A stretch of DNA of 64,000 nt from Candidatus Stercoripulliclostridium sp. (GCA_045535235.1 JAZSLG010000071.1:3445-67444); one strand, 5' to 3'; shown: positions 1 through 18,639, numbered from the stretch's first letter. The notes: generated from the letters alone by a model not told the origin. A program made the numbers and translations.

Positions 1-29
1 AAAATAAAAAAAGTAAAACGAGGTTTCAA

Positions 30-449
30 ATGATAAGATTCGAAAAAGGATTACAGTCAACACATGAATTAAAAAAAATTACTTATAGGATGCTTCGAAA
101 ACTGCATACTCTTGAATATAAGAGTTCATTAAAGGATTGTCAAAAAATAGGAAGTAAGTACGCAGTAATACTATATTTAGAACATATGTTAACGGTGATG
201 AAGCGTTCTTATGAGGGTTTAGAAATAATTAATCCGCTAATTGCAAAAATAGATAATCTTATCAGATCTATTCAAAATCAAAAACATGTGAATCGGGTGT
301 TACTGGTTTCATGCTTGAAAAAACATACATATGTATTTAATATGTTGGAGAGTAATCATGTCTATAATATTAAAAATGCTGAATTATCGGAACTATGGTC
401 AATGAAATGTCTGTCGACCTATGTGTTTCAATTCGGAAACAATTTGTAA
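30..449 (+). CDS. hypothetical protein (139 aa, looks all-helical), immediately upstream of SIR2 gene
   Basis: ORF track. It stops 28 nt before the SIR2 start. I recognise no motif, and only a weak RBS precedes the ATG. Confidence 0.45.
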   Translation: MIRFEKGLQSTHELKKITYRMLRKLHTLEYKSSLKDCQKIGSKYAVILYLEHMLTVMKRSYEGLEIINPLIAKIDNLIRSIQNQKHVNRVLLVSCLKKHTYVFNMLESNHVYNIKNAELSELWSMKCLSTYVFQFGNNL

Positions 450-476
450 TGGTCAAATTGTAAAGGAGGATTGTGA

Positions 477-1394
477 ATGGCGATTTCTATAGAGGAAGCA
501 AAAAAGGAATTGGGCGCACTGCTTAAAAAAAACAAATTGTGTATTTTTGCGGGGTCAGGTATTTCAGTACCAGCTCCATCTAATCTACCAACTTGGGATG
601 AATTTGTTGATAAATATATAGATATTTGCAAAGAAATCAATGAAATGGTTGATTCGACACTGAAATTTAAAGAGTTATTGGACGATGCGCAAAGCTACAA
701 AACAAAAAGTGCCATCAACACATTAACTGTTTTAAAAGATAAAATACGATTCTGCAAAAAACATGGGATGAGTACGACCATATACGATGAAATGTTAAAT
801 GAATTATTTGCAGCAAAAGATTTTAATGATTATCATAGCACAATCGTAGATACCAACTATAAATATATATTAACCACTAATTATGATACGTTGTTGGATA
901 AGGCAGCAAAAATGCATAAGCACTATGACTTAGTACAAAGAATATATTCTTACAAAAACCTGCAAGGAATTTCTGAAGCCATATATACTGAAGAACCTGC
1001 AATTATTCACATTCATGGTATTGCAACGGAGGTAGTTTTAGAAGACTTTATTCTAACGGCAGATGACTATAAGCGAATTCGTGATAAAAATAAGGGAATA
1101 AGGACTTTATTAAATATTCTTTTTATGAACTACTCTATGCTTATGGTGGGTTATGGCGCAAGTGATCCACATTTAGAAGATGTTATAGAAGACATAAATT
1201 TGAGTTTTGGATGGATGGATTCGGACAATATTCTTGATTTACCAACATATTATTTGATTATAAAAAAAGACAAAGTCAGTCCAATTTTTGATCAGTTAAA
1301 AAATAGGAATAGAACAAAAGTTATTGCGGTAGAAACACACGATGAGGCACTAGAGTTGTTAAAATACCTACAAACTATTTCCCCTAAAACATAA
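477..1394 (+). CDS. SIR2-family (SIR2_2/ThsA-DSR-like) NAD+-utilising protein, stand-alone 305 aa
   Basis: Motifs: N-terminal CIFAGSGIS..P..LPTW (Rossmann NAD-binding loop), TTNYD (aa 133-137), IHIHG (His180) and VGYGASDPH (aa 224-232), the pattern of defence-type SIR2_2 domains. Strong RBS aaaggagg upstream. Confidence 0.8.
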   Translation: MAISIEEAKKELGALLKKNKLCIFAGSGISVPAPSNLPTWDEFVDKYIDICKEINEMVDSTLKFKELLDDAQSYKTKSAINTLTVLKDKIRFCKKHGMSTTIYDEMLNELFAAKDFNDYHSTIVDTNYKYILTTNYDTLLDKAAKMHKHYDLVQRIYSYKNLQGISEAIYTEEPAIIHIHGIATEVVLEDFILTADDYKRIRDKNKGIRTLLNILFMNYSMLMVGYGASDPHLEDVIEDINLSFGWMDSDNILDLPTYYLIIKKDKVSPIFDQLKNRNRTKVIAVETHDEALELLKYLQTISPKT

Positions 1395-1540
1395 ATTTTA
1401 CATGACCATTGACAATAGAGAAATGTGTTCTTGCACCAAAATGCATTCTGGATCATATTGCAATATTTAGGTGCTCGTGATTTTGTAAAATGTGGTGAAA
1501 TCAAAGTGTAGCCTTTTCGTACTACTTAGACACAAAAGGG

Positions 1541-1566
1541 AAGCAAGTCTTATGACTTGCTTTTTC
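1541..1566 (+). terminator. rho-independent terminator downstream of SIR2 gene
   Basis: 9-bp stem aagcaagtc / gacttgctt, loop ttat, then a T-run. Confidence 0.55.
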
Positions 1567-1716: not shown

Positions 1717-1923
1717 TTATAACAATATTCCCAAAATATAATTTGCATCTAAATCCAATTCAATGCAAAGTTTAGCAAATGTGTCTAGTTTAGGTAGTTT
1801 TTTTGTTGTTTTATATTGCGTTATCATTTCTGGAGAAACCCCAACGCGCTTTGCTATTTCTATGGTTGTTAAACCACAATTTTTTATTTCATCACTTAAC
1901 CTTGCTTTAATTGTATTTTCCAT
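1717..1923 (-). CDS. XRE-family helix-turn-helix transcriptional regulator (68 aa)
   Basis: GLTTIEIAKRVGVSPEMITQYKTTKKLPKLDTFAKLC is a classic HTH_3 pattern. RBS gagg upstream on the minus strand. Confidence 0.8.
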   Translation of the reverse strand: MENTIKARLSDEIKNCGLTTIEIAKRVGVSPEMITQYKTTKKLPKLDTFAKLCIELDLDANYILGILL

Positions 1924-2391: not shown

Positions 2392-3546
2392 ATGAATATA
2401 CTAAAGACAAAAGTATTTAGAATTATAGCTATTGTCGTTGCTTGCGTACTGGTCGTTGCAGGCTCGGTTTCTATTGGACTTTGGGAGTATGCCAAGGACG
2501 TTTATTACATAAATAAAGATGGTAACGTAGCATATCAACAAGAACATATGCGGTATCTTAGAGAGGATTTTTACTCCAATTATACGCCAAAAGGGGAGCA
2601 AATTTTTTGTGATTTCGATTTAGAGGAAGCTCTGAATAATGGCGTTAAGTATAACGAAATGGCCTTTTTAGCCACGCATAATAGTTATCAACGTCTTTCT
2701 ACGGAAACAACTAGAAAATTCCAAATACCTTTTAAGGTGATGGCATTGGGACTCAAAGAGTTTAACAAAGTGGATTTTGATTCCGATACTTTGACAAACC
2801 AATTTGAGCAAGGTATTCGTAGTATAGAGTTAGATATAGAGGCAATGGAAAAAGAAAGTGGCATTTCCTTTACCGTTATGCACAAGCCGGTTTTTGATAG
2901 TGCAACCACTTGCTTCGATTTTGGTATGGCGTTAGAAGAAATAGTTATGTGGTCAAATCACAACCCCAACCATTTACCCATATCCATTATTATAGAGGCT
3001 AAACAAGACGTTGGACCGGTTGACGGGCTAAAGATATTCTCCATTAAACACGCAGAGCAGTTTGACAACCTTCTTAGAGAAAAGTTGGGTAACAAGTTAC
3101 TAACTCCTGCAGATTTTTTAGGTGAACACGCTACCTTTGAAGATATGAGAAATGCCGATGATTGGATGAAAGTTAAGGATATGCTTGGAAAGGTCGTAGT
3201 TATTTTACACGAAAACAAAATGACCAAAGATTACGTTAAAAGGGATGAAACCTTGCGTACCCAAGCAATGATACCATCTGTTTTATACAAGCAAAGGAAC
3301 AGACATTATGCCGGAATTATCATAGAAAACAACCCCAAAAAGGCACTTGAAAGGCAGGACGTATTTGAAAGTGGTAACTTTATGGTAAGAACGAGGGCCG
3401 ATAGTTATCCCAAGTTTAGCGATACCAGATACGAGCGCACTGAGAGGTGTACTTCGCAAATAATCACGAGCGATTACGTACCTCGTTCCGTTAGATTAAA
3501 TCAACACGTTTACTCATTCAACGGATATACCGTAAAGCTATTGTAA
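2392..3546 (+). CDS. membrane-anchored PLC-like phosphodiesterase (PI-PLC X-domain-like)
   Basis: N-terminal TM segment (IIAIVVACVLVVAGSVSIGLW). FLATHNSYQ and IRSIELDIE motifs are typical of bacterial Ca-dependent PI-PLC-like domains. Confidence 0.7.
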   Translation: MNILKTKVFRIIAIVVACVLVVAGSVSIGLWEYAKDVYYINKDGNVAYQQEHMRYLREDFYSNYTPKGEQIFCDFDLEEALNNGVKYNEMAFLATHNSYQRLSTETTRKFQIPFKVMALGLKEFNKVDFDSDTLTNQFEQGIRSIELDIEAMEKESGISFTVMHKPVFDSATTCFDFGMALEEIVMWSNHNPNHLPISIIIEAKQDVGPVDGLKIFSIKHAEQFDNLLREKLGNKLLTPADFLGEHATFEDMRNADDWMKVKDMLGKVVVILHENKMTKDYVKRDETLRTQAMIPSVLYKQRNRHYAGIIIENNPKKALERQDVFESGNFMVRTRADSYPKFSDTRYERTERCTSQIITSDYVPRSVRLNQHVYSFNGYTVKLL

Positions 3547-4033: not shown

Positions 4034-4140
4034 GGTTTTATTGGAATCATATTATTAAAGGGGATAATCCAAAGTGTAAAAAGGGCATTGGTCTTTTGAT
4101 ATATTGTAGGTATTACGGGTTTTACAAAGGAGAAGGCGGG

Positions 4141-5058
4141 ATGAGGTTAGTAGATATAGGAAGTACTTTCGTTTTAGAAAAAGTTGGTACCCAAGAAAGA
4201 GAATATTACGTTTTAATTGAGCCTATCGTAGAGTATAAGCCCATTTTTTCAGGCGGAAGTTTTAGGGATAGGATTGCTCATAGGCGTGTCGTTCATATAA
4301 ACGTGGTAGACGTTGATAGCAAATTTGAAAGGGTCTCCAAGGATTCTGATTTTGGCAAGCACGTTTATGGAGCAAGCCTTGGGTCTTTGATTTATTGGAA
4401 AGATGAAACGGGCAAAAACGTGCCTTATCGTATTGTTGAAATAGATAATGAAAAAATAGTTTCTAGCGTAAAGCCTATTAAAAAGGTTGAATCTAAAAAA
4501 GAAATACAGACGCCAGAACCTAAAAAAGTAATTAATAAATCAAGCGAAGAGAAAAGAATTAAGGTTTCGGAAAAAGAAAAACGAGAGTATGCAACTGCTT
4601 TAGAAATAGTTAGAGAACAAGTTAAAAACAATCAAGGATTAATCGTTTTGTGGAGACCACAGTGGACGCATGATTTTTGTTTTGTCGTGGAATCTTTCGA
4701 ATGGGATAAAAATGAACTCTTTTTTGTTGGGACCTGTTTCGTTGAAGGAAAGGTTCATCAAAGGAATAGGCGATTTCTGGCAAGGCATGAATTCAAACTA
4801 TACGACGGTGTATATCTATCAAAAATACAATTCACTTATAAATATTTGCCTATAACGATAGAAAGAAAAGATTTTATCGAGTTGGATGAAAAATATATAA
4901 AAATAAAGGATGAACTCAATAACCTCATCATAGAGGAGATTGGAGAGGATACTTTTGAGGGGTATAAATATTTGTATTGGGGGATGAAAAAGAAAATATT
5001 AAAGGAAAAGTACGGTATTGATTGGAAAACCCCGAAAGAATTAAACCCTAATTTATAA
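4141..5058 (+). CDS. hypothetical protein; N-terminus resembles a GreA/B C-terminal (FKBP-like) fold, then a Lys/Glu linker and an unknown C-terminal domain
   Basis: RBS aaaggagaagg precedes the ATG at 4141. VGSTFVLE...YYVLIEP...FGKHVYGASLGSLIYW...YRIVEI follows the Gre C-terminal pattern by eye only. Confidence 0.55.
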   Translation: MRLVDIGSTFVLEKVGTQEREYYVLIEPIVEYKPIFSGGSFRDRIAHRRVVHINVVDVDSKFERVSKDSDFGKHVYGASLGSLIYWKDETGKNVPYRIVEIDNEKIVSSVKPIKKVESKKEIQTPEPKKVINKSSEEKRIKVSEKEKREYATALEIVREQVKNNQGLIVLWRPQWTHDFCFVVESFEWDKNELFFVGTCFVEGKVHQRNRRFLARHEFKLYDGVYLSKIQFTYKYLPITIERKDFIELDEKYIKIKDELNNLIIEEIGEDTFEGYKYLYWGMKKKILKEKYGIDWKTPKELNPNL

Positions 5059-5076: not shown

Positions 5077-5496
5077 GTGAAAGAAAACAAAATTTTGGAA
5101 AACGGAAAGGGCAAATATTTGGATATCGTTGAGTACGATAAGGATATGGGCGAGTATAACATATCTGAAGAGGGATTAGCAAAACTCCGTGGCAAGTCCC
5201 TCATGGAACAAGTAGATTGCTACAAGGCGATTGCGACCACCAGTTTGTGTAGCTATTCCTATGGAAGAGAGGACGGCAGTAGTTACCGAGGCATAGAGAA
5301 TTCTTTTTGGACTGATAGCGATATTGAAGGAATTATTGTTGATAACGGCATAATTGTTGGCGTAAAAGCAAAAAAATTCTTGTACGGCTTATGCAATCTA
5401 TTCCCCGGTGAAACAATAAATACCTATTCCGCTTGTGACGAGGACGGCACCGGTGGAAGGGATAGGGATGATTATCTAAGAATAGAAATAAAATAA
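5077..5496 (+). CDS. hypothetical protein (139 aa)
   Basis: ORF with a GTG start 18 nt after the previous stop and RBS aaaggaaagg. No recognised motif. Confidence 0.5.
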   Translation: MKENKILENGKGKYLDIVEYDKDMGEYNISEEGLAKLRGKSLMEQVDCYKAIATTSLCSYSYGREDGSSYRGIENSFWTDSDIEGIIVDNGIIVGVKAKKFLYGLCNLFPGETINTYSACDEDGTGGRDRDDYLRIEIK

Positions 5497-5530: not shown

Positions 5531-6325
5531 TTAGTCGATGGGGTAATGATGTAAAATATGATTTATAAGTTTTAACGAGGAACGCTCAATTTCACTTGCA
5601 TCAAAGGTGAAAATATCAAGTCCAGCAAGGAAAGGAAAATGATTAAGTATATTATCATAATCTTGACTTTCCATAATACCATTGTTTTTTATATATACAG
5701 GCACAATTATTTTATTCTGTGAAAAAGCTGTTTCGTATTCTGCGCGAATAAACTTACTGTTAATTGAATTTTCGGATATTAGTAGGAGGAAAAATGGATG
5801 ATTATCAATAGCATTTATTAGAGAAGAAACCCAATCAACGCCTACCAACAAATTGTCGAAAGACCAAAATTTTATGCCGTATTTTGAGAGATAGTCCATT
5901 ATTGATGAAGCTACTTGAGCGTCACGCCGTGAGTAACTAATAAAGAAGCCTTGCGCTAACAGTATCTTGCGAAAAACTTTATCTATTTGGCGTTTGGTAT
6001 CAAAAGATAGTTCATTATTGCTATCAAGACAGTTTTCCAAATCGATTTCCAATACGTTGTCTTTTCCCGTTTTTGCCACGTAATCAAGTTCGCTTTTTAC
6101 CCATTTTGATGCCTCGGCATTTTTAGATCTACAATAAATAAACCATATCCTTGCATCAATTTCGTCTTGTATGAGCTTAATTATGGTGTTTTCATCATCC
6201 AAAGATTTCAAAAAGAAAAGTATAGGCTCGCAACCAATCGATTCGAGATAATTTCGTATAAGTCTTACTTCATATAAGTCTTTATGTGAGTGTGAAACGA
6301 ATATATAAATTTGATTATCCAACAT
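5531..6325 (-). CDS. tandem TIR-TIR domain protein (264 aa)
   Basis: Domain 1: IYIFVSHSHKD ... SKWVKSELDY. Domain 2: FFISYSRRD ... ISENSINSKFIRAEYETA. Both show the TIR beta-A motif and a conserved Glu region. RBS ggagga precedes the ATG at 6325; the 6403 start has no RBS. Confidence 0.8.
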   Translation of the reverse strand: MLDNQIYIFVSHSHKDLYEVRLIRNYLESIGCEPILFFLKSLDDENTIIKLIQDEIDARIWFIYCRSKNAEASKWVKSELDYVAKTGKDNVLEIDLENCLDSNNELSFDTKRQIDKVFRKILLAQGFFISYSRRDAQVASSIMDYLSKYGIKFWSFDNLLVGVDWVSSLINAIDNHPFFLLLISENSINSKFIRAEYETAFSQNKIIVPVYIKNNGIMESQDYDNILNHFPFLAGLDIFTFDASEIERSSLKLINHILHHYPID

Positions 6326-6474
6326 GCTTCCTCCGTTGTGTACATTAATTATATACTTTTTCTCCCGCTTTTGTAAAGATGAAACGTATTTTACACCAGC
6401 CATAACCTAGAAAATTGCTCATTGATTTGTCTTATAGTATATGTTATAATAAATTTATACGAAGGAGAGAATAT

Positions 6475-7139: not shown

Positions 7140-7859
7140 ATGGGATTAAATAGTGTAGGCGTATCAAGAAATATCGACATAGTATTTTGTATTGATGGAA
7201 CTGGTAGCATGTCTCCTTGCCTTGATAAGGTAAAAGCTAATGCAAGAAAGTTCTACATGGATTTCGTTGATGAAATGGTAAAAGACGGTACCAACGTTGA
7301 TTGCTTAAACATGAAAGTTATTACTTTCCGTGATTACAAGGACGATGGCCCCAATGCAATGATAGAAAGTGAATGGTATGATATGACCGCAGGCGATGAA
7401 GACAAATATGAAAAGCACCTTAGCGGTATTATTGCAGACGGTGGCGGTGACGAACCCGAAAACGGATTGGAAGCTTTGTTCCAAGCAATGTGTACAAAAT
7501 GGAATGCAAAGGGCGATAAGGATAGACAAATAATCGTATTGTTTACCGATGCGGATGCTCTTCCCTTAAAGGACCGTGAAGGCGTTTCCGGATATCCTGC
7601 AAATATGGTTGACCAAGATGGCTTGATTAAAGCTTGGTTCTGTACTCGCCCCGATTTTCTTTCACAAGGAGAATTTTCTCTAAGAGAAAGATGCAAGAGA
7701 TTGGTTATGTTTGCTCCCGCAGGTAGCGCTTATGAAAATCTTTCCACTCTTTTGAATCGTAGCATTTTCAAACCTGTTGAGATGAATTCCGGTCTAGGTG
7801 AAATAGATTTTAGTGACGTAATTAAAATCGTTAAAGCATCTGCTAGCGCTGCGTCATAA
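7140..7859 (+). CDS. vWA-domain protein, TerY-like (paralog A)
   Basis: MIDAS-type DIVFCIDGTGSM, GGGDEPENGLEA and LFTDADA motifs. Strong RBS aaaggagg. Confidence 0.85.
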   Translation: MGLNSVGVSRNIDIVFCIDGTGSMSPCLDKVKANARKFYMDFVDEMVKDGTNVDCLNMKVITFRDYKDDGPNAMIESEWYDMTAGDEDKYEKHLSGIIADGGGDEPENGLEALFQAMCTKWNAKGDKDRQIIVLFTDADALPLKDREGVSGYPANMVDQDGLIKAWFCTRPDFLSQGEFSLRERCKRLVMFAPAGSAYENLSTLLNRSIFKPVEMNSGLGEIDFSDVIKIVKASASAAS

Positions 7860-7902
7860 TTAGATTTCGGTTCAAACATTTTAATATTAATACAAAAATA
7901 AG

Positions 7903-7930
7903 TAATAAGCCGATTAATATCGGCTTATTA
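7903..7930 (+). promoter_or_regulatory. perfect 12-bp intercistronic stem-loop abutting the next RBS
   Basis: taataagccgat-taat-atcggcttatta. No T-run follows, and the RBS gaaggag begins at 7932. Confidence 0.5.
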
Positions 7931-7943
7931 CGAAGGAGAAGAT

Positions 7944-8801
7944 ATGTGTAAAAAGTACGTTAAAGTATATTGTCCTCAATCAAAATGTCATGGATTGGTT
8001 ACAATTGAAAATAATAACGGCGTAGATCAAGTCGTTAACTTTTACGAAATAGATAATGATACCGCAAACAAGATAAAAACCGATTATGAAGGCAATCTTC
8101 CTATGGTTTCTCAACATTTGAAGCCTTGTGCTGATACAGGTAGGAGGGAGCCAAAATGTTGTGATAAAAAGCGTTCTTGTAAAGTTAAGACTGGTGAATT
8201 ATGGTACCAATGCCTATATTGTTCCAATTTGGAATTGGCTAGAGAGAGCTCGGGTGGAGCAGAATTTTATTTCTTACTTGATGCTTCCGGCAGTATGAGT
8301 TATAGAGATAGGAAAGATGCTTCTAAGGCAGTAAGTAAAATGATGCAATCTTTACAGGGAAACGGCAATACGTATAGTTTCGTACCTTGGGCTTGTAGGG
8401 CAACCTATTTGTTCCATAGGGAAACCAATTTGTATAAGATGAATTCTGCATTAAGTCAATATGAAAATGATTTATGTGACGTAGGGGGAAGCACTGCTGC
8501 AGATGAAGCGTTTAAGTTTATATATTCAGACGTTATGAGTGCGAAGAAACCCGTAAGAATCATTTTGGTTACGGACGGATACTTTAACGACGATGATAGT
8601 GCTGTTAGAGCGAGAGATTTGTTGTTAAGAAAAAAAGACGTAGAAATCCTAGCTATTGGTATTACCGGGGCAAATGCTAGTACGCTAAAAAGAATAGGTA
8701 CTGTTTCCGACTTCTCAATAGTTGTAGGTGAAAGTTCTGCTTTGATTAGTACGTTTGAAGAAATAACACAAATATTAAAGAATAACGGCAACAACTTCTA
8801 A
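7944..8801 (+). CDS. vWA-domain protein with a Cys-rich (Zn-ribbon-like) N-terminal module
   Basis: N-terminal ~95 aa contain CPQSKCH, CC, C-x6-ish and CLYC cysteine clusters. The vWA part has FYFLLDASGSMS (DxSxS MIDAS), GGST and LVTDG. Confidence 0.8.
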   Translation: MCKKYVKVYCPQSKCHGLVTIENNNGVDQVVNFYEIDNDTANKIKTDYEGNLPMVSQHLKPCADTGRREPKCCDKKRSCKVKTGELWYQCLYCSNLELARESSGGAEFYFLLDASGSMSYRDRKDASKAVSKMMQSLQGNGNTYSFVPWACRATYLFHRETNLYKMNSALSQYENDLCDVGGSTAADEAFKFIYSDVMSAKKPVRIILVTDGYFNDDDSAVRARDLLLRKKDVEILAIGITGANASTLKRIGTVSDFSIVVGESSALISTFEEITQILKNNGNNF

Positions 8802-8811
8802 GGAGGGAAAT

Positions 8812-9507
8812 ATGGGATTCAATCAATTAAGCAAAGAAAGGAAAATTGATATTGTTTTTTGCATTGATGCAACCAGCAGTATGGGCCATTGCATCGATAA
8901 CGTAAAAAAGCACGCAAGAACGTTTTATCAAGAATTCGTTGATAAAATGACAAAAGAGTATAATAGTAAAGTTGACTCTCTTAGGGTACAAGTCATAGTT
9001 TTCCGTGATTTGGAATGTGACACCGAGGGGCTTGTTTGCAGTGAGTTCTTTGAATTACCTGCCGATACAAGCTATTTTGAAAACTATCTCGATAGAGTTA
9101 CTCCTAGAGGTGGCGGAGATTATAAGGAAAGCGGTTTGGAAGCAATATATACTGCAATGACGACTGATTGGATAGCTAGAGGAAGCAACGATAGACAAGT
9201 TATTCTATTCTTTTCCGATGCCGACGCTATTGATTTTGGCGAAAAGGAAAATAGAACCGGTTATCCCAAAATTTGTGACCAAGCAACATTTTTGAACATG
9301 TGGCTATGTAGAATGGGAAATGCCAACAAGCTTAGCGAAAGATGCAAGAGAATGGTAATGTTTGCTCCTGCAAAATCGGTTTATGAAAAGTTGCAAGGAA
9401 CGTTGAATAGGACTGCTTTTAAGGCAGTATTACCTCAAAAAGGAATGAAGGACGTTTCATTTGATGAAATAATGAAAATTCTTTGCGCTAGCGCATCCTC
9501 TATTTAA
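8812..9507 (+). CDS. vWA-domain protein, TerY-like (paralog C of 7140..7859)
   Basis: Motifs: DIVFCIDATSSM, GGGDYKESGLEA, FFSDADA. Collinear with paralog A along its whole length, including SERCKR.VMFAP and the C-terminal ASAS tail. Confidence 0.85.
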   Translation: MGFNQLSKERKIDIVFCIDATSSMGHCIDNVKKHARTFYQEFVDKMTKEYNSKVDSLRVQVIVFRDLECDTEGLVCSEFFELPADTSYFENYLDRVTPRGGGDYKESGLEAIYTAMTTDWIARGSNDRQVILFFSDADAIDFGEKENRTGYPKICDQATFLNMWLCRMGNANKLSERCKRMVMFAPAKSVYEKLQGTLNRTAFKAVLPQKGMKDVSFDEIMKILCASASSI

Positions 9508-9534
9508 CAAAGGTGTTTAACGAAGGAGAAAAAA

Positions 9535-11145
9535 ATGATTTATCATAGTAAATATAATGTAAACCCTGCCGACGTTGTCGATGGTGCAATCAATTGGAAG
9601 ATTACGGGCAACGGTGCATTTATCATCGCAGAATACGGTGGAACAAAGTATTTCGTTAAGAGATATACTATGGGTCCAAGAATGCCCACCTCTGAAATTC
9701 CAGAACCTGTTTATTCCGATAATAAAAAGACGGCGGACGCTTTGACACAAAAGCAGGAAGAAATCCGTCGTTTGTTTAAAAAGGCGGGACTTAACGTTGA
9801 CACTCATCACATAGTTGTAGAGGAAGAAAACTTTTGGGATGACGATAATATGTTCGTTACGGTTACTCGCGTAATACCCAACGAAAACGAAGGCTTTGAT
9901 TACAAGAGACTTAGTCAAAAGGATTTCGTAAAATTGTGTTGCGATATAACGGAACTCATAAGAAAAATTCACGATGCCGGTGTTACGCATGGTGATTTGA
10001 AAGAAAAAAATATATTAATTCAAAACAATTCCGGCGCATTTGTACCTTATCTTATTGACTTTGATTCCTCCTATCCAAGTGATTATCCTACTAGAAAAAA
10101 GAGTGATGGTACTCCCATGCTTTCTGTTCCGATAGTATATTCACCCGGTTATCAAAGTCCGGAAATCGCTATTAATAACTTTAATAATGATAATGGCGAC
10201 GAGGTTGACACAACGTTAATTAGTAATAAAACGGACATTTTCACGTTGGCTTTAATTTTCCACAAGCTTTGGACTGGTATTTTCCCTACCGTTATAGGTG
10301 ACGATTGTCCCGTTGCGGAAGCAGTATACATGAGAACGCCCATTAGATTAGACTCCAAGTTTGACGTAATCCTTGGAGCTAATAACGAGTGTAAATTCTC
10401 CGGCTTACTCGAGTGGATGCTTTCTAAAGAGGGTAAGGATAGACCTACCGCACAACAAGTATTGGACGTTTTGAACGATAGGTTGGACGTAGGCGAGCAT
10501 TTTGCTTACACGGGCGCTCCGCAAAGATTTGATTTGGATCCCCACCGCGTTCATGAAAGCGCAATAGAGATTTTGGATAGAGAAGCGCTAAGGGCACTTG
10601 GACTAAGATCTTTAGTAAAGATAACGGAAGGCGGTAATTACAAATATCTTGTTAGAAAAACAGATGGCTCTGAGTTTAGGTACACGGTAGACGAACTCAT
10701 AACTAACGGCTATGCTAAAGCAAAACCCATCAGTTTGGGTACGCTTTTCCCCGAGGATAGCGCAGTTATTGAATTTGTAAGCGCCGATGAGATAGCTAAG
10801 CTAGGTGTAATTTCGATTGAGCCTCGTGATTTGGGCTTTAGAAAATTCTACTTTGTTAAGCTAATGAATGGTGGTGGATATACAGCGAGCAAGACTGCTT
10901 TGATTGATAGAGGAATTGCAAGGCTTAAACCTGTTACTCCCGTATCGATAGCTATGGACGACGCTCCTTGGCCCGAGCATGGTTCAAGTTATCGTAAAGA
11001 AAATCTCATAGCAAGAAAAATTATTAAGATAGAAAAAGTAGTGGAAGACGGTCAACACAAATATAAGATTATTTATGATGATGGTGGTACACAAAGTGAA
11101 CGTATCGTTGCCGTAAGCTATCTTAAAATCATGAAAATATTATAA
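9535..11145 (+). CDS. Ser/Thr protein kinase (Hanks-type) with three C-terminal ~50-aa repeats
   Basis: Motifs: Gly loop ITGNGAF, beta3 Lys in YFVKRY, catalytic loop HGDLKEKN (Asp154 = nt 9994-9996), DFD (aa 175-177), YQSPE, DIFTLALIF and a DRPTA subdomain XI Arg. Confidence 0.85.
   Translation: MIYHSKYNVNPADVVDGAINWKITGNGAFIIAEYGGTKYFVKRYTMGPRMPTSEIPEPVYSDNKKTADALTQKQEEIRRLFKKAGLNVDTHHIVVEEENFWDDDNMFVTVTRVIPNENEGFDYKRLSQKDFVKLCCDITELIRKIHDAGVTHGDLKEKNILIQNNSGAFVPYLIDFDSSYPSDYPTRKKSDGTPMLSVPIVYSPGYQSPEIAINNFNNDNGDEVDTTLISNKTDIFTLALIFHKLWTGIFPTVIGDDCPVAEAVYMRTPIRLDSKFDVILGANNECKFSGLLEWMLSKEGKDRPTAQQVLDVLNDRLDVGEHFAYTGAPQRFDLDPHRVHESAIEILDREALRALGLRSLVKITEGGNYKYLVRKTDGSEFRYTVDELITNGYAKAKPISLGTLFPEDSAVIEFVSADEIAKLGVISIEPRDLGFRKFYFVKLMNGGGYTASKTALIDRGIARLKPVTPVSIAMDDAPWPEHGSSYRKENLIARKIIKIEKVVEDGQHKYKIIYDDGGTQSERIVAVSYLKIMKIL
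10579..11142 (+). repeat. three tandem protein-level repeats in the kinase C-terminus
   Basis: aa ~349-398, 417-467 and 487-536 share the core G-x(1,2)-[KR]-[YF]-x-[VIF]-x3-[DN]-G ... L-I-x2-G-x-A-[KR]-x-K-P. Aligned by eye. Confidence 0.5.
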
Positions 11146-11158
11146 TGAGGAAATTGCC

Positions 11159-13576
11159 GTGAATTATTTTAAGTTTTATAAAGTTCAAAAAAACGAAGAT
11201 TCGGACCCATATTTGTTTATTAATGAAGCAAATGGTGAAGGAATAGTTGCCGTTGCCGATGGTTTGGGTGGCTCCGGCTCTTTCGTTCACGTTATAGAAG
11301 AGAACGATAAGAAAGGAAATTTTGAAAAAACGCTAAAAGAGAGTTTTTTACCCGAGTATTATCTTAAGGAAGAAGTTCCCACCGAGGAAAAAGAAGAGAA
11401 AGTAGTAGAGCAAGCGCCAGAAAACGCAGATAATGCCTCCGAACAAGCGGAAAATGCGGAGGAGAAGGGCGAAGAACAAGCCGAAGAAATCCCCGTTGTT
11501 GAGGAAAAGGTTACCGTTGAGGAAGCACCTAAGGGCGACGAAGAGTTTGAAAAGTGGGTTGACCAAATGCTAGCTCCCATGCTTGACGACGAATCGGACA
11601 CCTCTGCTCTTTGGGGTTCACGTATTGCAATTGCGCGTACTATCTACTATTTGAAAAGCAACCCCAACAAGGCTCTTAGCGACGAAGAAACTAGGAAAGA
11701 AATGGTGGAATTCGTCTATAAAGGCTTGAATGACGTTAAAGATACTTTCCATTTGAAAACCGGTAATATCGCAGGTCAGTCAACCTTGCCTACCACTCTT
11801 GTAGTTATGAAGTACAAGGAAATGGAAGAGGGAGTAAAGGTTGAAGTTGTTTGGGCAGGCGACTCCAGAGGCTACGCGCTAATCCCCGGTAAAGGCTTAA
11901 AACAACTCACCGAGGACGACGAAGACGGCTCCGGTGCAATAAACAACCTCTTCTCTATCCATAAAGAGAAAAATGCAAACACCGTTTTGCATTATAAAGA
12001 GGTTCTTTTACCCAAGAAAAGTGCTATTTTTGCTTGCAGTGACGGTTTCTTCGACCCATTCGATCCCATCGATAACATTGGCGTAGAATGCGTATTGTTG
12101 GATGCGATAAATAAAGCAAATTCCTATGAGGAGTTTGAAGAAGAATGGCATGCTTTCTATAAGCCCACCACTCACGACGATTGCAGTATATCTTTCGTAT
12201 CCCTTGGCTATGATAGTTACGAGGCATTCAAAGATGATTTTTGTGATGCAGAAAGAATGCTAAAAGTAAGGGGCTTGTTTGACGATTATAGTAAGTATAG
12301 AAAGCTTTTCTTAATCTTTGATGGTATAGAAGATCGTCCCGAGGAATACATTGAAGAAAGAGCTATGGCAAGAAAGGATAGTATTTTGGATATTATTTCA
12401 CAAGCTATCGTAAGCGGACAAGAAGACGGTGTTATTACGGATAAAGAAATAGCCATATACGAAAAACTAAAGAAAGATAAAAAGGAAGAGGCAGAATCGA
12501 AAAAAGGTGAAGCCATATACAAAAAGAGAGCAGAAATATTAAATGATATTAATGATAATATCCAAGACTGTTCTAAAATCTTTGACGTTTTTAACCTTGA
12601 CCAAGGTGACGACGTGCTTTTAGCAATAAACGAGGCTAATGGTACGTATAAAGCGTTTGAACAAGCTAACAAAGAATTGGAGGCGGTGAATACACAACTG
12701 GCGGATTTGGAAAAGGATCAAAAGCAAGTTGAGGCTCGCGGAGATGCTATTATCAATTCAAAAAGCAAGAAAAATGCAGATGGGAAAATTATTTTCAGCT
12801 TGAACGACAGACTGCAAGAGTTGGAAAAATATATTGCCGAATACAAGCAAAGAGAGAATGAGAATAATGATATAACCCATCGCAAACCAATTAATTGTGG
12901 ACCGGACGACCATTATTTGGAAAATGCAAGAAAAACCAGCCATGAAGCAAGATCTCAATATAAAAAATGGGAAAAAGCCAAAGAAAATCTTGAAAAAGTT
13001 AAACAAGATTGGATTGACAAAAAACCAACTTGCAATAATTTCTTTGGAAAAATCTTTAAGCTGTTCTGTGGCTTGATGAATCAATTCTTTGATAGAAAAC
13101 TTTTTGAAATAGACAAAGAAATCATAGAGCCTATTAAAAAAGCACTTGAAGAATATCATCAAATAGGTGGGAAGATTGAGGCGATTAAGAAAGAGATAGA
13201 AAAGAAAGATAAAGAAAAAGAAAAGATTTGTGCCGAGTGGCAAAAGAATATGTCGTCTCTAAATAAAGATTTGCCGAAGATGATAGAGAATTGTGATCAT
13301 TACTTTACCAAAGAGGCAATTGTTAAATACGATTTACCGGTTAATTGTCCTCAACCGCAAGAGATTACGGCAGAAGATCTAAAAATTGCTCTAGATGATG
13401 AGTACGCTGGCATAATTGAAAATTATAAAAAGTGTAATCAAAGCTTAATAGATAGAGTGTTTAATCGTAGTAAGGTGGAGTTATTCAGGTCGTACAAGGA
13501 TTTGGATGAAAACGAGGCCAGAAAAGCGAAAAAAGAGATAGCCGAAATGGAAAAGAACTATTTTGTAATAGATTAA
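11159..13576 (+). CDS. PP2C-family Ser/Thr phosphatase fused to a ~450-aa coiled-coil C-terminus
   Basis: GTG start with RBS gagga. Motifs: VAVADGLGGSG (aa 31-40), VWAGDSRGY (aa 231-239), FACSDGFFD (aa 291-299). An acidic low-complexity insert spans aa ~70-135. From aa ~400 the sequence is Lys/Glu-rich and heptad-like. Confidence 0.8.
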   Translation: MNYFKFYKVQKNEDSDPYLFINEANGEGIVAVADGLGGSGSFVHVIEENDKKGNFEKTLKESFLPEYYLKEEVPTEEKEEKVVEQAPENADNASEQAENAEEKGEEQAEEIPVVEEKVTVEEAPKGDEEFEKWVDQMLAPMLDDESDTSALWGSRIAIARTIYYLKSNPNKALSDEETRKEMVEFVYKGLNDVKDTFHLKTGNIAGQSTLPTTLVVMKYKEMEEGVKVEVVWAGDSRGYALIPGKGLKQLTEDDEDGSGAINNLFSIHKEKNANTVLHYKEVLLPKKSAIFACSDGFFDPFDPIDNIGVECVLLDAINKANSYEEFEEEWHAFYKPTTHDDCSISFVSLGYDSYEAFKDDFCDAERMLKVRGLFDDYSKYRKLFLIFDGIEDRPEEYIEERAMARKDSILDIISQAIVSGQEDGVITDKEIAIYEKLKKDKKEEAESKKGEAIYKKRAEILNDINDNIQDCSKIFDVFNLDQGDDVLLAINEANGTYKAFEQANKELEAVNTQLADLEKDQKQVEARGDAIINSKSKKNADGKIIFSLNDRLQELEKYIAEYKQRENENNDITHRKPINCGPDDHYLENARKTSHEARSQYKKWEKAKENLEKVKQDWIDKKPTCNNFFGKIFKLFCGLMNQFFDRKLFEIDKEIIEPIKKALEEYHQIGGKIEAIKKEIEKKDKEKEKICAEWQKNMSSLNKDLPKMIENCDHYFTKEAIVKYDLPVNCPQPQEITAEDLKIALDDEYAGIIENYKKCNQSLIDRVFNRSKVELFRSYKDLDENEARKAKKEIAEMEKNYFVID

Positions 13577-14104: not shown

Positions 14105-17100
14105 ATGCTTCATTTGAGACGAAATGATTTGGAAGAGATTGTAAAATCAATGTCGAGTGGCCCTATAACCGCAAAAGACCTTGACGAATTAATCAAGGGC
14201 TTGGGTGAAGTGTATAAGGAAGTCAAAGAAAGAGAGGACGTCGCCGAACAAAAAAGGCTTCAAAAGGAAAAAGAAGAGCGCGAAAAGGTGGAAAACGTTA
14301 CCTGCATGGAGCTTCCTTTGGACTATGAGAACTATTTTGAATACGATATGAATGCAACGAGTGTGCGCGTAGAGTCGGCATCCGATGCTTTGATAACCTC
14401 GCTAAACAATTTGGGCAGAGTGGATATTGAGTATATGTCGGTAATATCGGGACTTACGCACAAGGCTCTCATAGTGGAACTTAAAGGTGCCATATACCAA
14501 AATCCGGACAAATGGGAGGAATGTTTTTACAAAGGTTGGGAGACTGCTGATGAATATTTGTCGGGCAATCTACTGCGCAAACGAGCCAAAGCCGTTGACT
14601 GTGAAAAAAAGTATAAAGGATGGTTCCAGGATAATATTAGGGCAATCGACGAGGTCCTTCCCGATGCCGTTTCCACCCTTGATATATACGTTACTTTAGG
14701 CTCGCCCTGGGTGCCGACCGACGTGATTGAGGACTTTATAGACTATCTATACAACCACAAAAAGACCTACGTAAAATTGCGTGGTAGCGTTATTCACGAC
14801 GAAGAAACGGGAACTTGGGAAATAATTGATAAAAACCGTTACTATCACGACACGCTAAGCACCAGCACCTACGGTACCGATAGAATGGAAGCACTTTACA
14901 TTTTGGAAAAAACACTCAATATGCGTTCGATTGCCGTAACCGACGAGGTGCCGTGCATTAGTAATAAGTCGGGTAAAAAGCGCGTAATTAATCAAAAAGA
15001 GACCCTTCTTGCTATTGAAAAGCAAAAGAAGATGATAAAAATGTTCCAAAATTGGGTGTGGCGTGACGATGCTCGCAGAGAGCGCCTTGAAATTATCTAC
15101 GAGAATAATTACAGTTGTTACCGCACGAGAAAGTATAACGGATCCTTCCTCACTTTTCCAAAGATGAATCCCGATATCGTTCTTTATCCATACCAAAAGG
15201 ACGCCGTCAGTCGCATATTGTTTTCGCCCAACACCTTGCTTGCGCACGACGTAGGCTCGGGGAAAACCTATATCATGATTGCCGCCGGTATGGAAATGCG
15301 CCGAATGGGTTTGTCTAAGAAGAATATGTACGTCGTACCTAACAATATAGTGGGACAATGGAACAGAATGTTCTTGGAGCTTTATCCTAGTGCGCACTTG
15401 CTCGTGGTGGAGCCAAAGCATTTTACACCCGCAAAAAGACAAGATACCCTAAAAAAGATTAGGGATAACGACTATGATGCGGTAATTATGGCGTACAGCT
15501 GTTTTGACCAAATTCCTCTTTCTTATGATTACTATCTTGCCGAAGCTAGGGAGCGTAAAAAGGAACTGGAGAACAGAGTTTTCTCTAGGGCTAGGACCAC
15601 GCATACCGTTCAAAAAAAGTTGGAGAAGATGAAAAAAGAGGTGTCGGAGCTATCACAACAGTTATATAACGTAGTGATGGCAGGTGAAATTTACTTTGAC
15701 CAGTTGGGCATTACCAGGTTATTCGTAGACGAGGCGCACAACTATAAGAACGTACCCGTGGAAACCAAGATTAATAACGTACTTGGAATATCGGAGACAG
15801 GTAGTGAAAAGTGTAAGCTTATGATGGCAAAGGTGCATCAAGTACAAAAGAGTAACGAGGGAAAGGGGGTTGTTTTTGCAACGGGAACGCCCATAACCAA
15901 CTCAATAACCGATGCCTTTATCATGCAACTCTATCTACAAAGCGGTGAACTTGCCTTATTAGATATACAAAACTTTGATGCGTGGGTAGGCATGTTTGCC
16001 GAGAAGGAAGAAAGCTTTGAAATCGACGTCGATACCAAGAATTATAGGTTGGCAACAAGGTTTTCCAAGTTTCATAATATCCCGGAGCTAACTTCGTTAT
16101 TATCATCTATTGCGGATTTTCATATCACTAAAACTAGCGAAGATTTACCCGTATTTACGGGATATACTGATGCTTTGGTGGGGAAAACGCCTGATTTCCA
16201 AGATTATTTGGACAAAATATCCGACCGAGCCGAAGCCGTAAGAAAGGGGCAAGTTGGTAGGAACGAGGACAATATGCTTTTGATAACTACCGATGGTAGA
16301 AAGGCTGCTCTCGACCTTCGTTTGGTGGATAACACTAAACCCTTCGTGTTCCAATCAAAGGTGGCACGTTGCGCCGAAAACGTCTATAACATATACGATA
16401 AGACAATGGAAGGGAAATTGACACAATTGGTTTTTTGTGATACATCCGTTCCCAGTGACCGGTTTAATATGTACGACGAACTCAAAAGGTTGCTTTTGGC
16501 CCTTGGTATTCCCGAGCAAGAAATAGCATTTATACACGACGCAACGACGGACAAGAGTAGGCTTGCATTCTTTGACAAGGTGCAAAAGGGCGAAATTAGA
16601 GTGCTAATGGGATCCACTTTCAAGTTGGGTATTGGCGTAAACGTACAAAACAAGCTGGTTGCCATCCATCATTTGGACGTGCCTTGGCGCCCTGCAGATA
16701 TGGTACAACGCGAAGGAAGAATACTACGTCCCGGCAATACTAATGGTAGAGTATTCATATACCGCTACGTAACGGAAGGGAGTTTTGATGCGTACTCGTG
16801 GCAACTCTTGGAGAGTAAGCAACGCTTCATATCCGGTCTGCTTGCCGGATCCATCACCGAAAGGAATAACGTTGATATTAGCGATACTATACTAAATTAC
16901 GCCGAAGTAAAGGCGCTCGCAATAGGTAATCCTCTCATTAAAAAGAGGGTGGAAAAGGCAAATGAGTTAACAAAACTTTATGCTTTACAAGCCAAACACG
17001 TGGAGAATAAGGACAAAATTTCGAGAAAACAGCAAGAAATTCCCACTCTTATCAGTCAGGCACAAGAGAGAGTGGACAAATGCAAGGCGGACTTTGATTA

Positions 17101-17527
17101 CTACACCGAGCATAGGATGGAGCTAGGAAAAGAGGATAAAACGCGCTACGCTAAGCTTGTTTACAACGGAGTATTAGACAACGAAATGCAAATTGAGGAG
17201 CGCGTGATAGGAGTCTTCCAAGGCTTTGATATCATACTTCCCTCCCACATGCAAAATGAAAGACCTTTTATTTATCTAGCGCGCGAAAGTCGTCACCAAG
17301 TGGAAATCGGCGAATCGGAAGTAGGTGTTGTTTTCCGCATGATTAACTGCTTAGATAACCTCGGCAAGCGCCTCGATAGACTAAGATACAGAGTGTCACA
17401 GTTGGAGTTTGAACGCATCGAAATTGAGCGCGAACTTAACAAACCGGGTGGATACCTTGATGAAATTGAGGCACTAAAGAATGAAATCAAAGAAATTGAT
17501 AGAAAATTGGGGGTAAAACTTAAATGA
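14105..17527 (+). CDS. SNF2-family (SF2) helicase/translocase, 1140 aa, with a non-helicase N-terminal region and a C-terminal coiled coil
   Basis: Motifs: LYPYQKDAV, HDVGSGKTY (GSGKT = nt 15254-15268), LFVDEAHNYKN (DEAH = nt 15728-15739), ATGTPITNS, MGSTFKLGIGVNVQ, MVQREGRILRPGN (nt ~16706-16720). RBS aaggag. Confidence 0.9.
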   Translation: MLHLRRNDLEEIVKSMSSGPITAKDLDELIKGLGEVYKEVKEREDVAEQKRLQKEKEEREKVENVTCMELPLDYENYFEYDMNATSVRVESASDALITSLNNLGRVDIEYMSVISGLTHKALIVELKGAIYQNPDKWEECFYKGWETADEYLSGNLLRKRAKAVDCEKKYKGWFQDNIRAIDEVLPDAVSTLDIYVTLGSPWVPTDVIEDFIDYLYNHKKTYVKLRGSVIHDEETGTWEIIDKNRYYHDTLSTSTYGTDRMEALYILEKTLNMRSIAVTDEVPCISNKSGKKRVINQKETLLAIEKQKKMIKMFQNWVWRDDARRERLEIIYENNYSCYRTRKYNGSFLTFPKMNPDIVLYPYQKDAVSRILFSPNTLLAHDVGSGKTYIMIAAGMEMRRMGLSKKNMYVVPNNIVGQWNRMFLELYPSAHLLVVEPKHFTPAKRQDTLKKIRDNDYDAVIMAYSCFDQIPLSYDYYLAEARERKKELENRVFSRARTTHTVQKKLEKMKKEVSELSQQLYNVVMAGEIYFDQLGITRLFVDEAHNYKNVPVETKINNVLGISETGSEKCKLMMAKVHQVQKSNEGKGVVFATGTPITNSITDAFIMQLYLQSGELALLDIQNFDAWVGMFAEKEESFEIDVDTKNYRLATRFSKFHNIPELTSLLSSIADFHITKTSEDLPVFTGYTDALVGKTPDFQDYLDKISDRAEAVRKGQVGRNEDNMLLITTDGRKAALDLRLVDNTKPFVFQSKVARCAENVYNIYDKTMEGKLTQLVFCDTSVPSDRFNMYDELKRLLLALGIPEQEIAFIHDATTDKSRLAFFDKVQKGEIRVLMGSTFKLGIGVNVQNKLVAIHHLDVPWRPADMVQREGRILRPGNTNGRVFIYRYVTEGSFDAYSWQLLESKQRFISGLLAGSITERNNVDISDTILNYAEVKALAIGNPLIKKRVEKANELTKLYALQAKHVENKDKISRKQQEIPTLISQAQERVDKCKADFDYYTEHRMELGKEDKTRYAKLVYNGVLDNEMQIEERVIGVFQGFDIILPSHMQNERPFIYLARESRHQVEIGESEVGVVFRMINCLDNLGKRLDRLRYRVSQLEFERIEIERELNKPGGYLDEIEALKNEIKEIDRKLGVKLK

Positions 17528-18639
17528 GTGATATAAAACTAAATGACGTAGTAAACATGAACGTAGACGCTTTCGTGGAAAAGCTAGGTGGGGCCTATTC
17601 TACCATTATAAACAAGGGATTGCCCGTCAAAAGTTTTCCATCCGTCATGCTTTGGGGCGCGCCGGGTGTCGGTAAATCGCAAGGAGTAAGGCAAATTGCC
17701 ACCAAAATAGAGGAAGAAACGGGCAAAAAGGTTTTCGTTACCGACGTTCGTCTGCTCCTATTTAATCCCATCGACCTTCGTGGTATACCCACGGCAAACC
17801 AAGATAAAACTCTTGCCGTTTGGCTAAAACCACAAATATTCCAAATGAACGAAAGTAAGGACGTTGTGAACATATTGTTTTTGGACGAAATATCGTCGGC
17901 TCCGCAGTCGGTACAAGCCTCCGCTTACCAAATTACTCTCGATAGGGTTGTGGGTGAGCATAAACTACCCGAAAACTGCATAGTTATTGGCGCAGGTAAC
18001 CGTTTGACCGATAAATCCGTCGCCTATAAAATGCCAAAAGCCCTTGCTAACCGTTTGCTACATATTAACGTTGAGGGTAGTTTTGCGTCGTGGAATAAGT
18101 GGGCGGTTAAGAGTGGAATAAACGCCAAAGTATTAGGCTTTCTTTCCTTCCAAAAGGATAGTTTGTTTAAGGGTAGCGAGAACTCGGAGGACCTCGCTTT
18201 CCCCACACCACGTTCGTGGGAAATGGTTAGCAACGTCCTTAACTCGGTATCCGACGACGTAAAAGAGGTTTTCCCATTTATTGCGGGGCTTGTGGGCGTG
18301 GGTATGGCATCGGAATTTCGTACTTGGTGCAAAATATATGCCAATTTGCCTAAAATAGAGGACATTTTTGCAGGAAAACGCCCGCCCGTTCCTCGCGATA
18401 CCGATGCATTATATGCTTTGGTTTCCGCCATGGTGTCCCATGCACGAGAGATTAAAAACGACCTTGGTAAAATCGCAAATTCCATCGATTATGCGAACTT
18501 AATCCCCGCAGACTTTTCGGTAATACTAATGAAAGATTATGCTTATTTGGAAAAGGATTATCAAAAAAAGTTAATGGCCATTCCCGAATATATGCGTTGG
18601 TTACAAACGAGGGGGAAATTGTTAAATGGTAATAACTAA
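17524..18639 (+). CDS. MoxR-like AAA+ ATPase (AAA_5 type)
   Basis: Walker A is LWGAPGVGKSQ (nt 17656-17679). Walker B is ILFLDEIS (DE = nt 17884-17889). GAGNR and PTPRSWE lie downstream. The ATG overlaps the SNF2 stop (ATGA). Confidence 0.85.
   Translation: MSDIKLNDVVNMNVDAFVEKLGGAYSTIINKGLPVKSFPSVMLWGAPGVGKSQGVRQIATKIEEETGKKVFVTDVRLLLFNPIDLRGIPTANQDKTLAVWLKPQIFQMNESKDVVNILFLDEISSAPQSVQASAYQITLDRVVGEHKLPENCIVIGAGNRLTDKSVAYKMPKALANRLLHINVEGSFASWNKWAVKSGINAKVLGFLSFQKDSLFKGSENSEDLAFPTPRSWEMVSNVLNSVSDDVKEVFPFIAGLVGVGMASEFRTWCKIYANLPKIEDIFAGKRPPVPRDTDALYALVSAMVSHAREIKNDLGKIANSIDYANLIPADFSVILMKDYAYLEKDYQKKLMAIPEYMRWLQTRGKLLNGNN

Follow-up and report, generated by a model that had tools for sequence, protein, structure and literature searches.

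A Short SIR2 Gene and a Conserved Small Helical Partner at the End of an Integrative Element: A Candidate Two-Gene Phage-Defence System

Introduction

Few effectors of bacterial immunity are as common as SIR2 NAD+ hydrolases (NADases). To our knowledge, each of those characterised so far is controlled by a large sensor, either fused to the enzyme or supplied by a partner (SLOG, HerA, pAgo, the DSR C-terminal domain, KomB or STAND), and in every characterised relative known to us the SIR2 effector domain is silent until a sensor domain or subunit triggers its oligomerisation. The present work concerns two adjacent genes at the beginning of a 64,000-nucleotide (nt) stretch of DNA from Candidatus Stercoripulliclostridium sp. 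(GCA_045535235.1, JAZSLG010000071.1:3445-67444), this whole stretch being referred to as the window. The downstream gene encodes a 305-amino-acid (aa) SIR2 protein and the upstream gene a small basic protein, here called the partner, which is predicted to be helical; together they take up 1.4 kb and encode 444 aa in total. The pair is probably an undescribed phage-defence system.

The closest mechanistic precedent is KomBC of the Kongming system, in which a short SIR2 likewise needs a separate sensing subunit (PMC13454610). In that system dITP is bound by KomB, an NTP pyrophosphatase of the HAM1 type, and the signal is made by KomA (PMC13454610). As at the present locus, a short single-domain SIR2 has no fused sensor, and its regulation goes, here putatively, through a separate small subunit. 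The predicted model of the SIR2 protein superposes on the whole of KomC, a 264-aa SIR2 NADase, with a template-modelling score of 0.75–0.78 normalised to KomC, and the two sequences match over residues 12–295 of the SIR2 protein (E 2e-4). Kongming differs in that the partner found here is basic, all-helical and devoid of HAM1 similarity, and in that neither a deaminase neighbour nor a conserved signal-making enzyme accompanies the pair. DSR2 was the best match of the SIR2 protein among PDB sequences (E 5e-8), with the catalytic Asn and His at the same positions, and the two may share a logic in which contact between a helical sensor region and a phage protein awakens a silent NADase. However, DSR2 carries its C-terminal sensor in cis, on one polypeptide of about 1000 aa, whereas here the putative sensor is encoded separately, as a protein of 139 aa in which no similarity to DSR2 could be detected, and the NCBIfam Dsr1 and Dsr2 models gave the 305-aa protein only 15 and 30 bits, respectively, against a cut-off of 1400.

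The likeness to type I Thoeris ThsA (SIR2-SLOG) is confined to the SIR2 domain (PADLOC match at profile positions 6–214 of 478), and the present locus has neither a SLOG domain nor a linked TIR (ThsB) gene. Similar SIR2 domains were also recognised in PDC-S25 and Lamassu LmuA-SIR2 (E 6e-12 and 7e-15, respectively), but these proteins are 430–530 aa long with C-terminal extensions, and Lamassu needs the SMC protein LmuB; the LmuA match covered only positions 6–254 of 433, and SMC_N/AAA domains occurred in two of the 136 neighbouring open reading frames (ORFs) inspected around homologous loci. With regard to SIR2-HerA (Nezha), no HerA was found among the immediate neighbours in any context, the sole DUF87 protein being a conjugation ATPase (contig L011), and for the SIR2 Argonaute system SPARSA there were weak PADLOC matches to the SIR2 part only, with no pAgo nearby. 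SpbK of Bacillus subtilis is a TIR NADase carried as NAD+-degrading, abortive-infection cargo by the integrative conjugative element ICEBs1 (PMC11984713); it differs in being a single TIR protein triggered by a protein of phage SPbeta, in place of a SIR2 with an obligatory partner.

The reference sets searched were PADLOC 2.0 (2023), Pfam (2025), NCBIfam (2026) and PHROGs, and none of them holds a model for the partner or the pair; the PADLOC comparison proposed with the original prediction returned matches at the level of the SIR2 domain and nothing for the partner. No described system of this composition emerged from a literature search whose coverage was incomplete, so that an earlier description is possible. 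The SIR2 effector and its general logic are well known; what is new is the pair as a candidate defence system with an orphan partner, which is not a categorical novelty.

Table 1. Features of the two-gene locus and of the related sequences used for comparison. Coordinates refer to the window unless a contig is named.
Feature	Position	Strand	Description
5' leader of the two-gene operon	1..29	+	GAGG at 20-23
Partner gene	30..449	+	139-aa ORF; basic (pI 9.6), all-helical (predicted) orphan protein
Ribosome-binding site of the SIR2 gene	463..469	+	AAGGAGG in the 27-nt spacer, 7 nt before the ATG; read from sequence
SIR2 gene	477..1394	+	305-aa ORF; SIR2_2 (SIRim-type), single-domain, predicted NAD+ hydrolase
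SIR2 motifs (protein residues)	GSGIS 26-30; TTNYD 133-137; HIHG 178-181; GYGASDP 225-231		
Predicted catalytic residues	Asn135 (879-881), His180 (1014-1016)	+	
3' untranslated operon tail	1395..1532	+	Coincides with the terminal 138 nt of the mobile element
Right end of integrative/conjugative element, junction with host DNA	1532..1533	.	Identity break and differing flanks
Hairpin with T-run	1541..1562	.	Host flank
IS-type (rve) transposase gene in L001	11175-12329	-	About 180 nt past the identity break
Bacteroidota-type downstream ORF family	~6930-7420 in L022, L031, L033, L036; 4262-4696 in L027		MKKAI.A....DKLY.LERIHSK...
P0263 TIR fusion	L093 93-1571		Single 1.7-kb metagenomic contig

Conservation of the Gene Pair

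The two ORFs named in the original prediction were both found to be real (Table 1), and the 139-aa ORF is a genuine gene conserved at the protein level. An alignment of the SIR2 protein was scanned against one genome per species of the Genome Taxonomy Database (GTDB), and the partner was followed with an iterated profile. The scan returned 25 SIR2 loci of the same clade (31–81% identity), from Bacillota, Acidobacteriota, Cyanobacteria, Chloroflexota, Bacteroidota and relatives, Spirochaetota, Proteobacteria, Desulfobacterota, Verrucomicrobiota and Planctomycetota, together with about 55 loci of other SIR2_2 families. The profile recognised an ORF of 139–169 aa (one called at 193 aa) directly adjoining the SIR2 gene in 19 of the 25 loci, so that the expected co-occurrence of the 139-aa family with short SIR2 proteins was observed, whereas no match was obtained in the roughly 55 loci of the other families. 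The small ORF is kept beside SIR2 homologues down to about 32% SIR2 identity and in at least 10 phyla. Five further loci, of Bacteroidota type (L022, L027, L031, L033 and L036), carry a 143–152-aa ORF downstream of SIR2, basic in four of the five, which is the probable positional equivalent of the partner. A same-sized small ORF therefore abuts the SIR2 gene in all 24 loci with enough sequence (the 19 recognised by profile and the five of Bacteroidota type), the remaining locus ending 52 nt past the SIR2 gene. Three weak matches to the partner were also checked, two of which lie directly after a SIR2_2 gene, and the third (L096) is an ORF beside an insertion-sequence (IS) fragment on a 0.9-kb contig, too short to be informative. 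This SIR2 clade was not found in the plasmid and phage GenBank collections, whose SIR2 proteins showed at most 29% identity.

The adjacency of the two genes is maintained although their order is not, being partner-SIR2 in Clostridia and SIR2-partner elsewhere. The spacing ranges from -11 to +76 nt, the SIR2 stop codon and the partner start codon frequently overlapping by 4 nt, and in many loci the partner is translationally coupled to SIR2. The pairwise identities of the two proteins are correlated over the 19 profile-recognised loci (Mantel r = 0.75, with none of 5000 permutations as high), and two SIR2 proteins are on average 38% identical but two partner proteins only 19%, the partner diverging about twice as fast. 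Among the 136 flanking ORFs of the 25 loci no family occurs in more than three loci, and there is no conserved third gene; no HerA, pAgo, SLOG, KomA/B or LmuB was found when a third shared gene was sought in the flanks. The flanking genes include scattered GajA, mad2/3, HEC-01, TIR, methyltransferase and integrase genes mixed with housekeeping genes. Only the partner and SIR2 are conserved, and they form a self-contained two-gene module. The original prediction had offered a minimal two-gene SIR2 system as one of two possibilities, and the conservation of the small ORF beside SIR2, its co-divergence and its coupling in many loci all speak for that one.

In the window the two genes are separated by a spacer of 27 nt (450–476), one fewer than had been stated. 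A promoter-like site, TTGAAA-16 nt-TGcTAAAAT, is situated between the stop codon of an upstream recombinase gene and the partner ATG, 32 nt 5' of the latter; it lies just left of the window and was read, as a consensus match only, from contigs 99.6% identical (L002 9495–9522, base 1 of the window being L002 9524). The hairpin at 1541–1562 probably also terminates read-through from the SIR2 operon.

The SIR2 Protein

The 305-aa protein matches Pfam SIR2_2 (PF13289) with an E value of 5e-20 (72.4 bits against a gathering cut-off of 24.5), and the assignment to this family and the four motifs reported for it were thus borne out. The core residues of the motifs are invariant in an alignment of 40 homologues (32–81% identity, all of about 300–330 aa). 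In the HMMER alignment Asn135 and His180 fall on N133 and H171 of DSR2, the latter being the position mutated in the catalytically dead DSR2 structures according to the PDB listing; because of this alignment and of their invariance across the 40 homologues, these two residues are the predicted catalytic ones. The AlphaFold2 model, built from the same alignment, reached a pLDDT of 91.6 and consists of one continuous SIR2 Rossmann domain without any appended module. The last 70 or so residues, which the original prediction had placed beyond the catalytic domain, are in the model two more strands and helices of the SIR2 fold and no separate domain; its statement that SLOG, TIR and large DSR-type extensions are lacking agrees with the model. 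The best Foldseek matches of the model were the ThsA SIR2 domain (E 1.6e-13), KomC, DSR2 and the SIR2 subunit of SPARSA, the first three ranging from 1e-13 to 1e-10, and the best PADLOC matches (the SIR2 part of ThsA, LmuA-SIR2, PDC-S25 and Dsr2) involved the SIR2 portion only. Neither the Pfam scan nor the model revealed a SLOG or Macro signal-binding domain. Across the family the SIR2 proteins have an acidic pI (median 5.8). Judged from its sequence, the protein is a predicted NAD+ hydrolase of the anti-phage type.

Sirtuin-fold enzymes also include protein deacylases and ADP-ribosyltransferases, such as those of the SirTM-Macro pairs (PMC9503650), and the protein might accordingly be a non-immune regulatory sirtuin of one of these kinds, with the lysine-rich, basic partner as its substrate or specificity factor. 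This is considered improbable, as the protein belongs to SIR2_2 (the SIRim subfamily), lies outside the classical sirtuins and is devoid of a Zn-ribbon module, its close structural relatives are all defence NADases, and the patchy distribution, low GC content and carriage on mobile elements speak against a housekeeping role. Moreover, a 12-fold enrichment near defence systems has been reported for the entire SIRim clade (bioRxiv 10.1101/2024.09.18.613514).

The Partner Protein

The partner has no match in Pfam, PADLOC, NCBIfam, PHROGs or the PDB sequences. An exhaustive HMMER search nevertheless gathered 134 clusters (50% identity) in 1.84 billion representative proteins, mostly from uncultured bacteria and nearly all of them stand-alone proteins of 140–160 aa. 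The family is characterised by an N-terminal basic helix (LKK.xY..L.KLH.LE), followed by HT..FN and a C-terminal W......WGN. It is basic throughout, with pI values of 8.7–11.1 and 6–14 Lys or Arg within the first 35 residues, and its alignment contains no invariant polar residues that would hint at catalysis. AlphaFold2 predicted five helices (residues 8–30, 42–60, 65–83, 89–108 and 117–135) with moderate confidence (pLDDT 65), and the small helical partner of the original prediction is therefore a conserved family with a helical model. A Foldseek search of this model against the PDB and BFVD gave nothing under E 0.6, while single-sequence and profile searches against PDB sequences returned generic or designed helical bundles only, from which no inference was drawn.

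No SIR2-partner fusion was found when the partner profile was run against the same 1.84 billion proteins. A fusion of another kind is represented by P0263 (492 aa), in which an N-terminal domain of unknown type precedes a partner-like domain (residues 190–317) that bears the family motifs, followed by a TIR_2 domain (345–443, E 2e-22). A search of the JGI metagenomes for relatives of P0263 found none. The occurrence of a partner-like domain fused to a TIR_2 NADase domain suggests that it is a portable regulatory module.

Carriage by Mobile Elements

The exact SIR2 protein was found on 16 metagenomic contigs, and window positions 1–1532 are 99.2–99.6% identical to nine independent contigs. This identity stops at an exact base, 1532 (...CTTAGACA|A), and beyond it at least four unrelated right flanks were distinguished (that of the window; L002; L003, L004, L006, L008 and L009; L005 and L007). 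The GC content is 31% to the left of the junction compared with 36–43% to the right. The pair is thus the final cargo of the element, whose right end follows 138 nt further on. The element boundary had escaped the original prediction, which carried the locus on to 1566, an end without biological meaning. In a tenth contig, L001, the match to the window ends earlier, at 1472, about 60 nt before the end of the element, and is followed by different sequence with a nearby IS-type transposase gene (Table 1); this break may explain why many assemblies stop just after the SIR2 gene.

Two kinds of left context were observed. In a first group of contigs (L001, L002, L005, L007, L011 and L012), whose partner is identical to that of the window, the pair is preceded by three large serine recombinases, TnpV and conjugation genes, the last including a DUF87/TraG-type ATPase and a 1372-aa protein; the carrier in this group is a conjugative element with serine recombinases. 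In a second group (L003, L004, L006 and L008) a radical-SAM/PNP_UDP_1/DUF6273/NADAR cluster and then a 241-aa ORF lie upstream of the pair, this ORF matching the C-terminal part (residues 357–544) of the same recombinase at 84% identity and being a remnant of it. The cluster, which replaces the recombinase genes (L003 1–9405; L004, L006), comprises three radical-SAM enzymes, a PNP_UDP_1 phosphorylase, two DUF6273 proteins and one NADAR protein; NADAR and PNP domains are themselves tied to NAD/ADP-ribose conflict systems. A 46%-identical pair occupies the same end-of-element place in an IMG/VR prophage contig (L097, UViG_3300029033_000100; 7548–8909), in the order tail protein, holin, endolysin, two serine integrases, partner, SIR2 and tRNA-Gln. 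The pair is consequently found inside a mobile element, between the recombinases and the element end, in two independent cases, a conjugative element and a prophage. The end of a mobile element by the attachment site is a usual place for defence or exclusion genes. All four right flanks open with a hairpin and a T-run (window 1533–1565; L002 11057–11100; L003 11057–11120; L005 8974–9010), which suggests that the serine-recombinase element inserts beside intrinsic terminators.

The second possibility of the original prediction, that the two genes are the tail of a larger SIR2 system with further genes upstream, arose from the position of the window, which begins 29 nt before the partner ORF and leaves its own upstream sequence outside; a DUF87/TraG-type ATPase also lies 9.5 kb upstream in L011. 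In the 99%-identical contigs, however, the upstream genes are recombinases and TnpV, or the different cluster of the second context, with no known SIR2 partner among them, and a promoter-like site separates them from the pair. The DUF87 protein is a conjugation ATPase, eight genes away and absent from all the other loci, and no gene recurs across the 25 loci. By the original prediction's own criterion this second possibility is refuted, and a larger system is scarcely credible on these data.

Because the identity stops at 1532 and the flanks beyond it are unrelated, everything past this base is host DNA, including a gene on the minus strand (5531–6403) that lies about 4 kb from the pair and encodes a protein of 290 aa with a TIR domain in each half, ThsB-like in the N-terminal one and of TIR_2 type in the C-terminal one. 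This tandem-TIR gene adjoins two unannotated ORFs (4096–5058 and 5077–5496) and has no adjacent ThsA-like effector. It could be imagined that a TIR protein encoded elsewhere, such as this one, makes a nucleotide signal that activates a complex of SIR2 and partner in the manner of Thoeris, given that ThsA provides both the best PADLOC match and the top Foldseek match of the SIR2 protein, that the ThsB-like protein is 4 kb away and that TIR genes lie within 3 kb in two of the 25 other loci. Against such signalling, the SIR2 protein has no SLOG or Macro domain to bind a signal, the boundary at 1532 splits the pair from the TIR gene, the same pair adjoins other flanks that lack this gene, and 23 of the 25 other loci have no TIR genes. 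A Thoeris link to the tandem-TIR gene was rejected on account of the element boundary and of the lack of TIR genes in the other loci, and a Thoeris-like role of the pair is regarded as very improbable.

Proposed Function

The SIR2 protein is a bare effector domain accompanied by an obligatory, co-evolving and fast-diverging small subunit, and for this reason it is proposed that the partner restrains SIR2 and itself senses infection directly, with sensing leading to NAD+ depletion and abortive infection; this is considered likely, with some reservation. In a complex of the two proteins the NADase would stay silent, the fast-evolving partner acting as a regulatory or sensing subunit made in amounts coupled to those of SIR2. 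The partner would directly recognise a protein or a nucleic acid as a sign of phage or foreign DNA, and this recognition would release the SIR2 subunits or assemble them into an active oligomer, by analogy with other SIR2 defence enzymes, whereupon cellular NAD+ would be destroyed and the infection would abort.

Several observations weigh against this proposal. The data fit the partner as a sensor and as a simple inhibitor or antitoxin alike, and its predicted fold, of moderate confidence, is uninformative. The TIR fusion comes from one 1.7-kb metagenomic contig with P0263 as its only representative, and no PADLOC model covers the two-gene system. The Bacteroidota-type ORF and the partner are colinear but not significantly similar by hhalign (probability 6%, or 23% with a 154-sequence profile). 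Finally, many of the flanking genes of the 25 loci are housekeeping genes.

The main rival explanation is a toxin-antitoxin or addiction module, in which an NAD+-depleting SIR2 toxin and a labile partner antitoxin would serve mainly to stabilise the element or prophage and less to sense phage, although such a function is compatible with a defence role. Two small coupled genes are an architecture compatible with type II toxin-antitoxin systems, and the compact operon, the strict co-occurrence, the tight coupling, the fast evolution of the small partner and the carriage on mobile elements beside recombinases would all be expected of such a module; a MazF-like gene, moreover, adjoins one homologue (L019). 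However, neither the Pfam scan nor the model gave the partner a recognisable DNA-binding antitoxin fold (ribbon-helix-helix, helix-turn-helix (HTH) or AbrB), a partner-like domain in cis with a TIR effector suits a regulator or sensor better than a degradable antitoxin, and in most phyla the pair is situated in chromosomal variable regions with no obvious mobile element. An addiction module is hence considered unlikely, though much less so than the other rivals, and a partner that both restrains SIR2 and senses infection is the preferred reading.

A wider generalisation from this reading can be entertained only tentatively, namely that the basic five-helix protein is a new portable sensor or regulator module for NAD+-degrading effectors, acting in trans with a minimal SIR2 in at least 10 phyla and, in one lineage or more, in cis with TIR. 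On this view the pair would be a widespread, unnamed abortive-infection system that recognises phage directly, without a nucleotide second messenger, an NTPase or an Argonaute.

Other Genes of the Host Flank

Just outside the element end, an Xre-type HTH gene (1717–1923, minus strand) diverges from a small Zn-ribbon or transmembrane-like ORF (1969–2238), which is followed by a gene (2392–3546) for a Ca2+-dependent protein resembling phosphatidylinositol-specific phospholipase C with an N-terminal transmembrane helix. Farther along, on the plus strand (7140–13576), three vWA-domain proteins are encoded in succession, followed by a Ser/Thr protein kinase and by a PP2C-like protein (805 aa). This cluster resembles TerY-P, although no PADLOC TerY-P model matched it, and its kinase matches the kinase domains of MkoA, mad6 and PD-T4-6. 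Positions 14105–19882 (plus strand) encode an SNF2-type helicase (1140 aa, with a C-terminal half like DrmD/BrxH), a MoxR-type AAA ATPase and a DUF2201 vWA-metallopeptidase, and may be a further defence or regulatory cluster in the same island.

Significance

The pair would be the smallest SIR2 system so far, with a sensor or regulator of unknown fold family. If active, it would offer a compact model in which to study the switching-on of a bare SIR2 domain, and would add an unannotated family to the catalogues of defence systems. It would also show once more that conjugative elements and prophages of gut Clostridia can carry NAD+-depleting defences at the ends next to their attachment sites.

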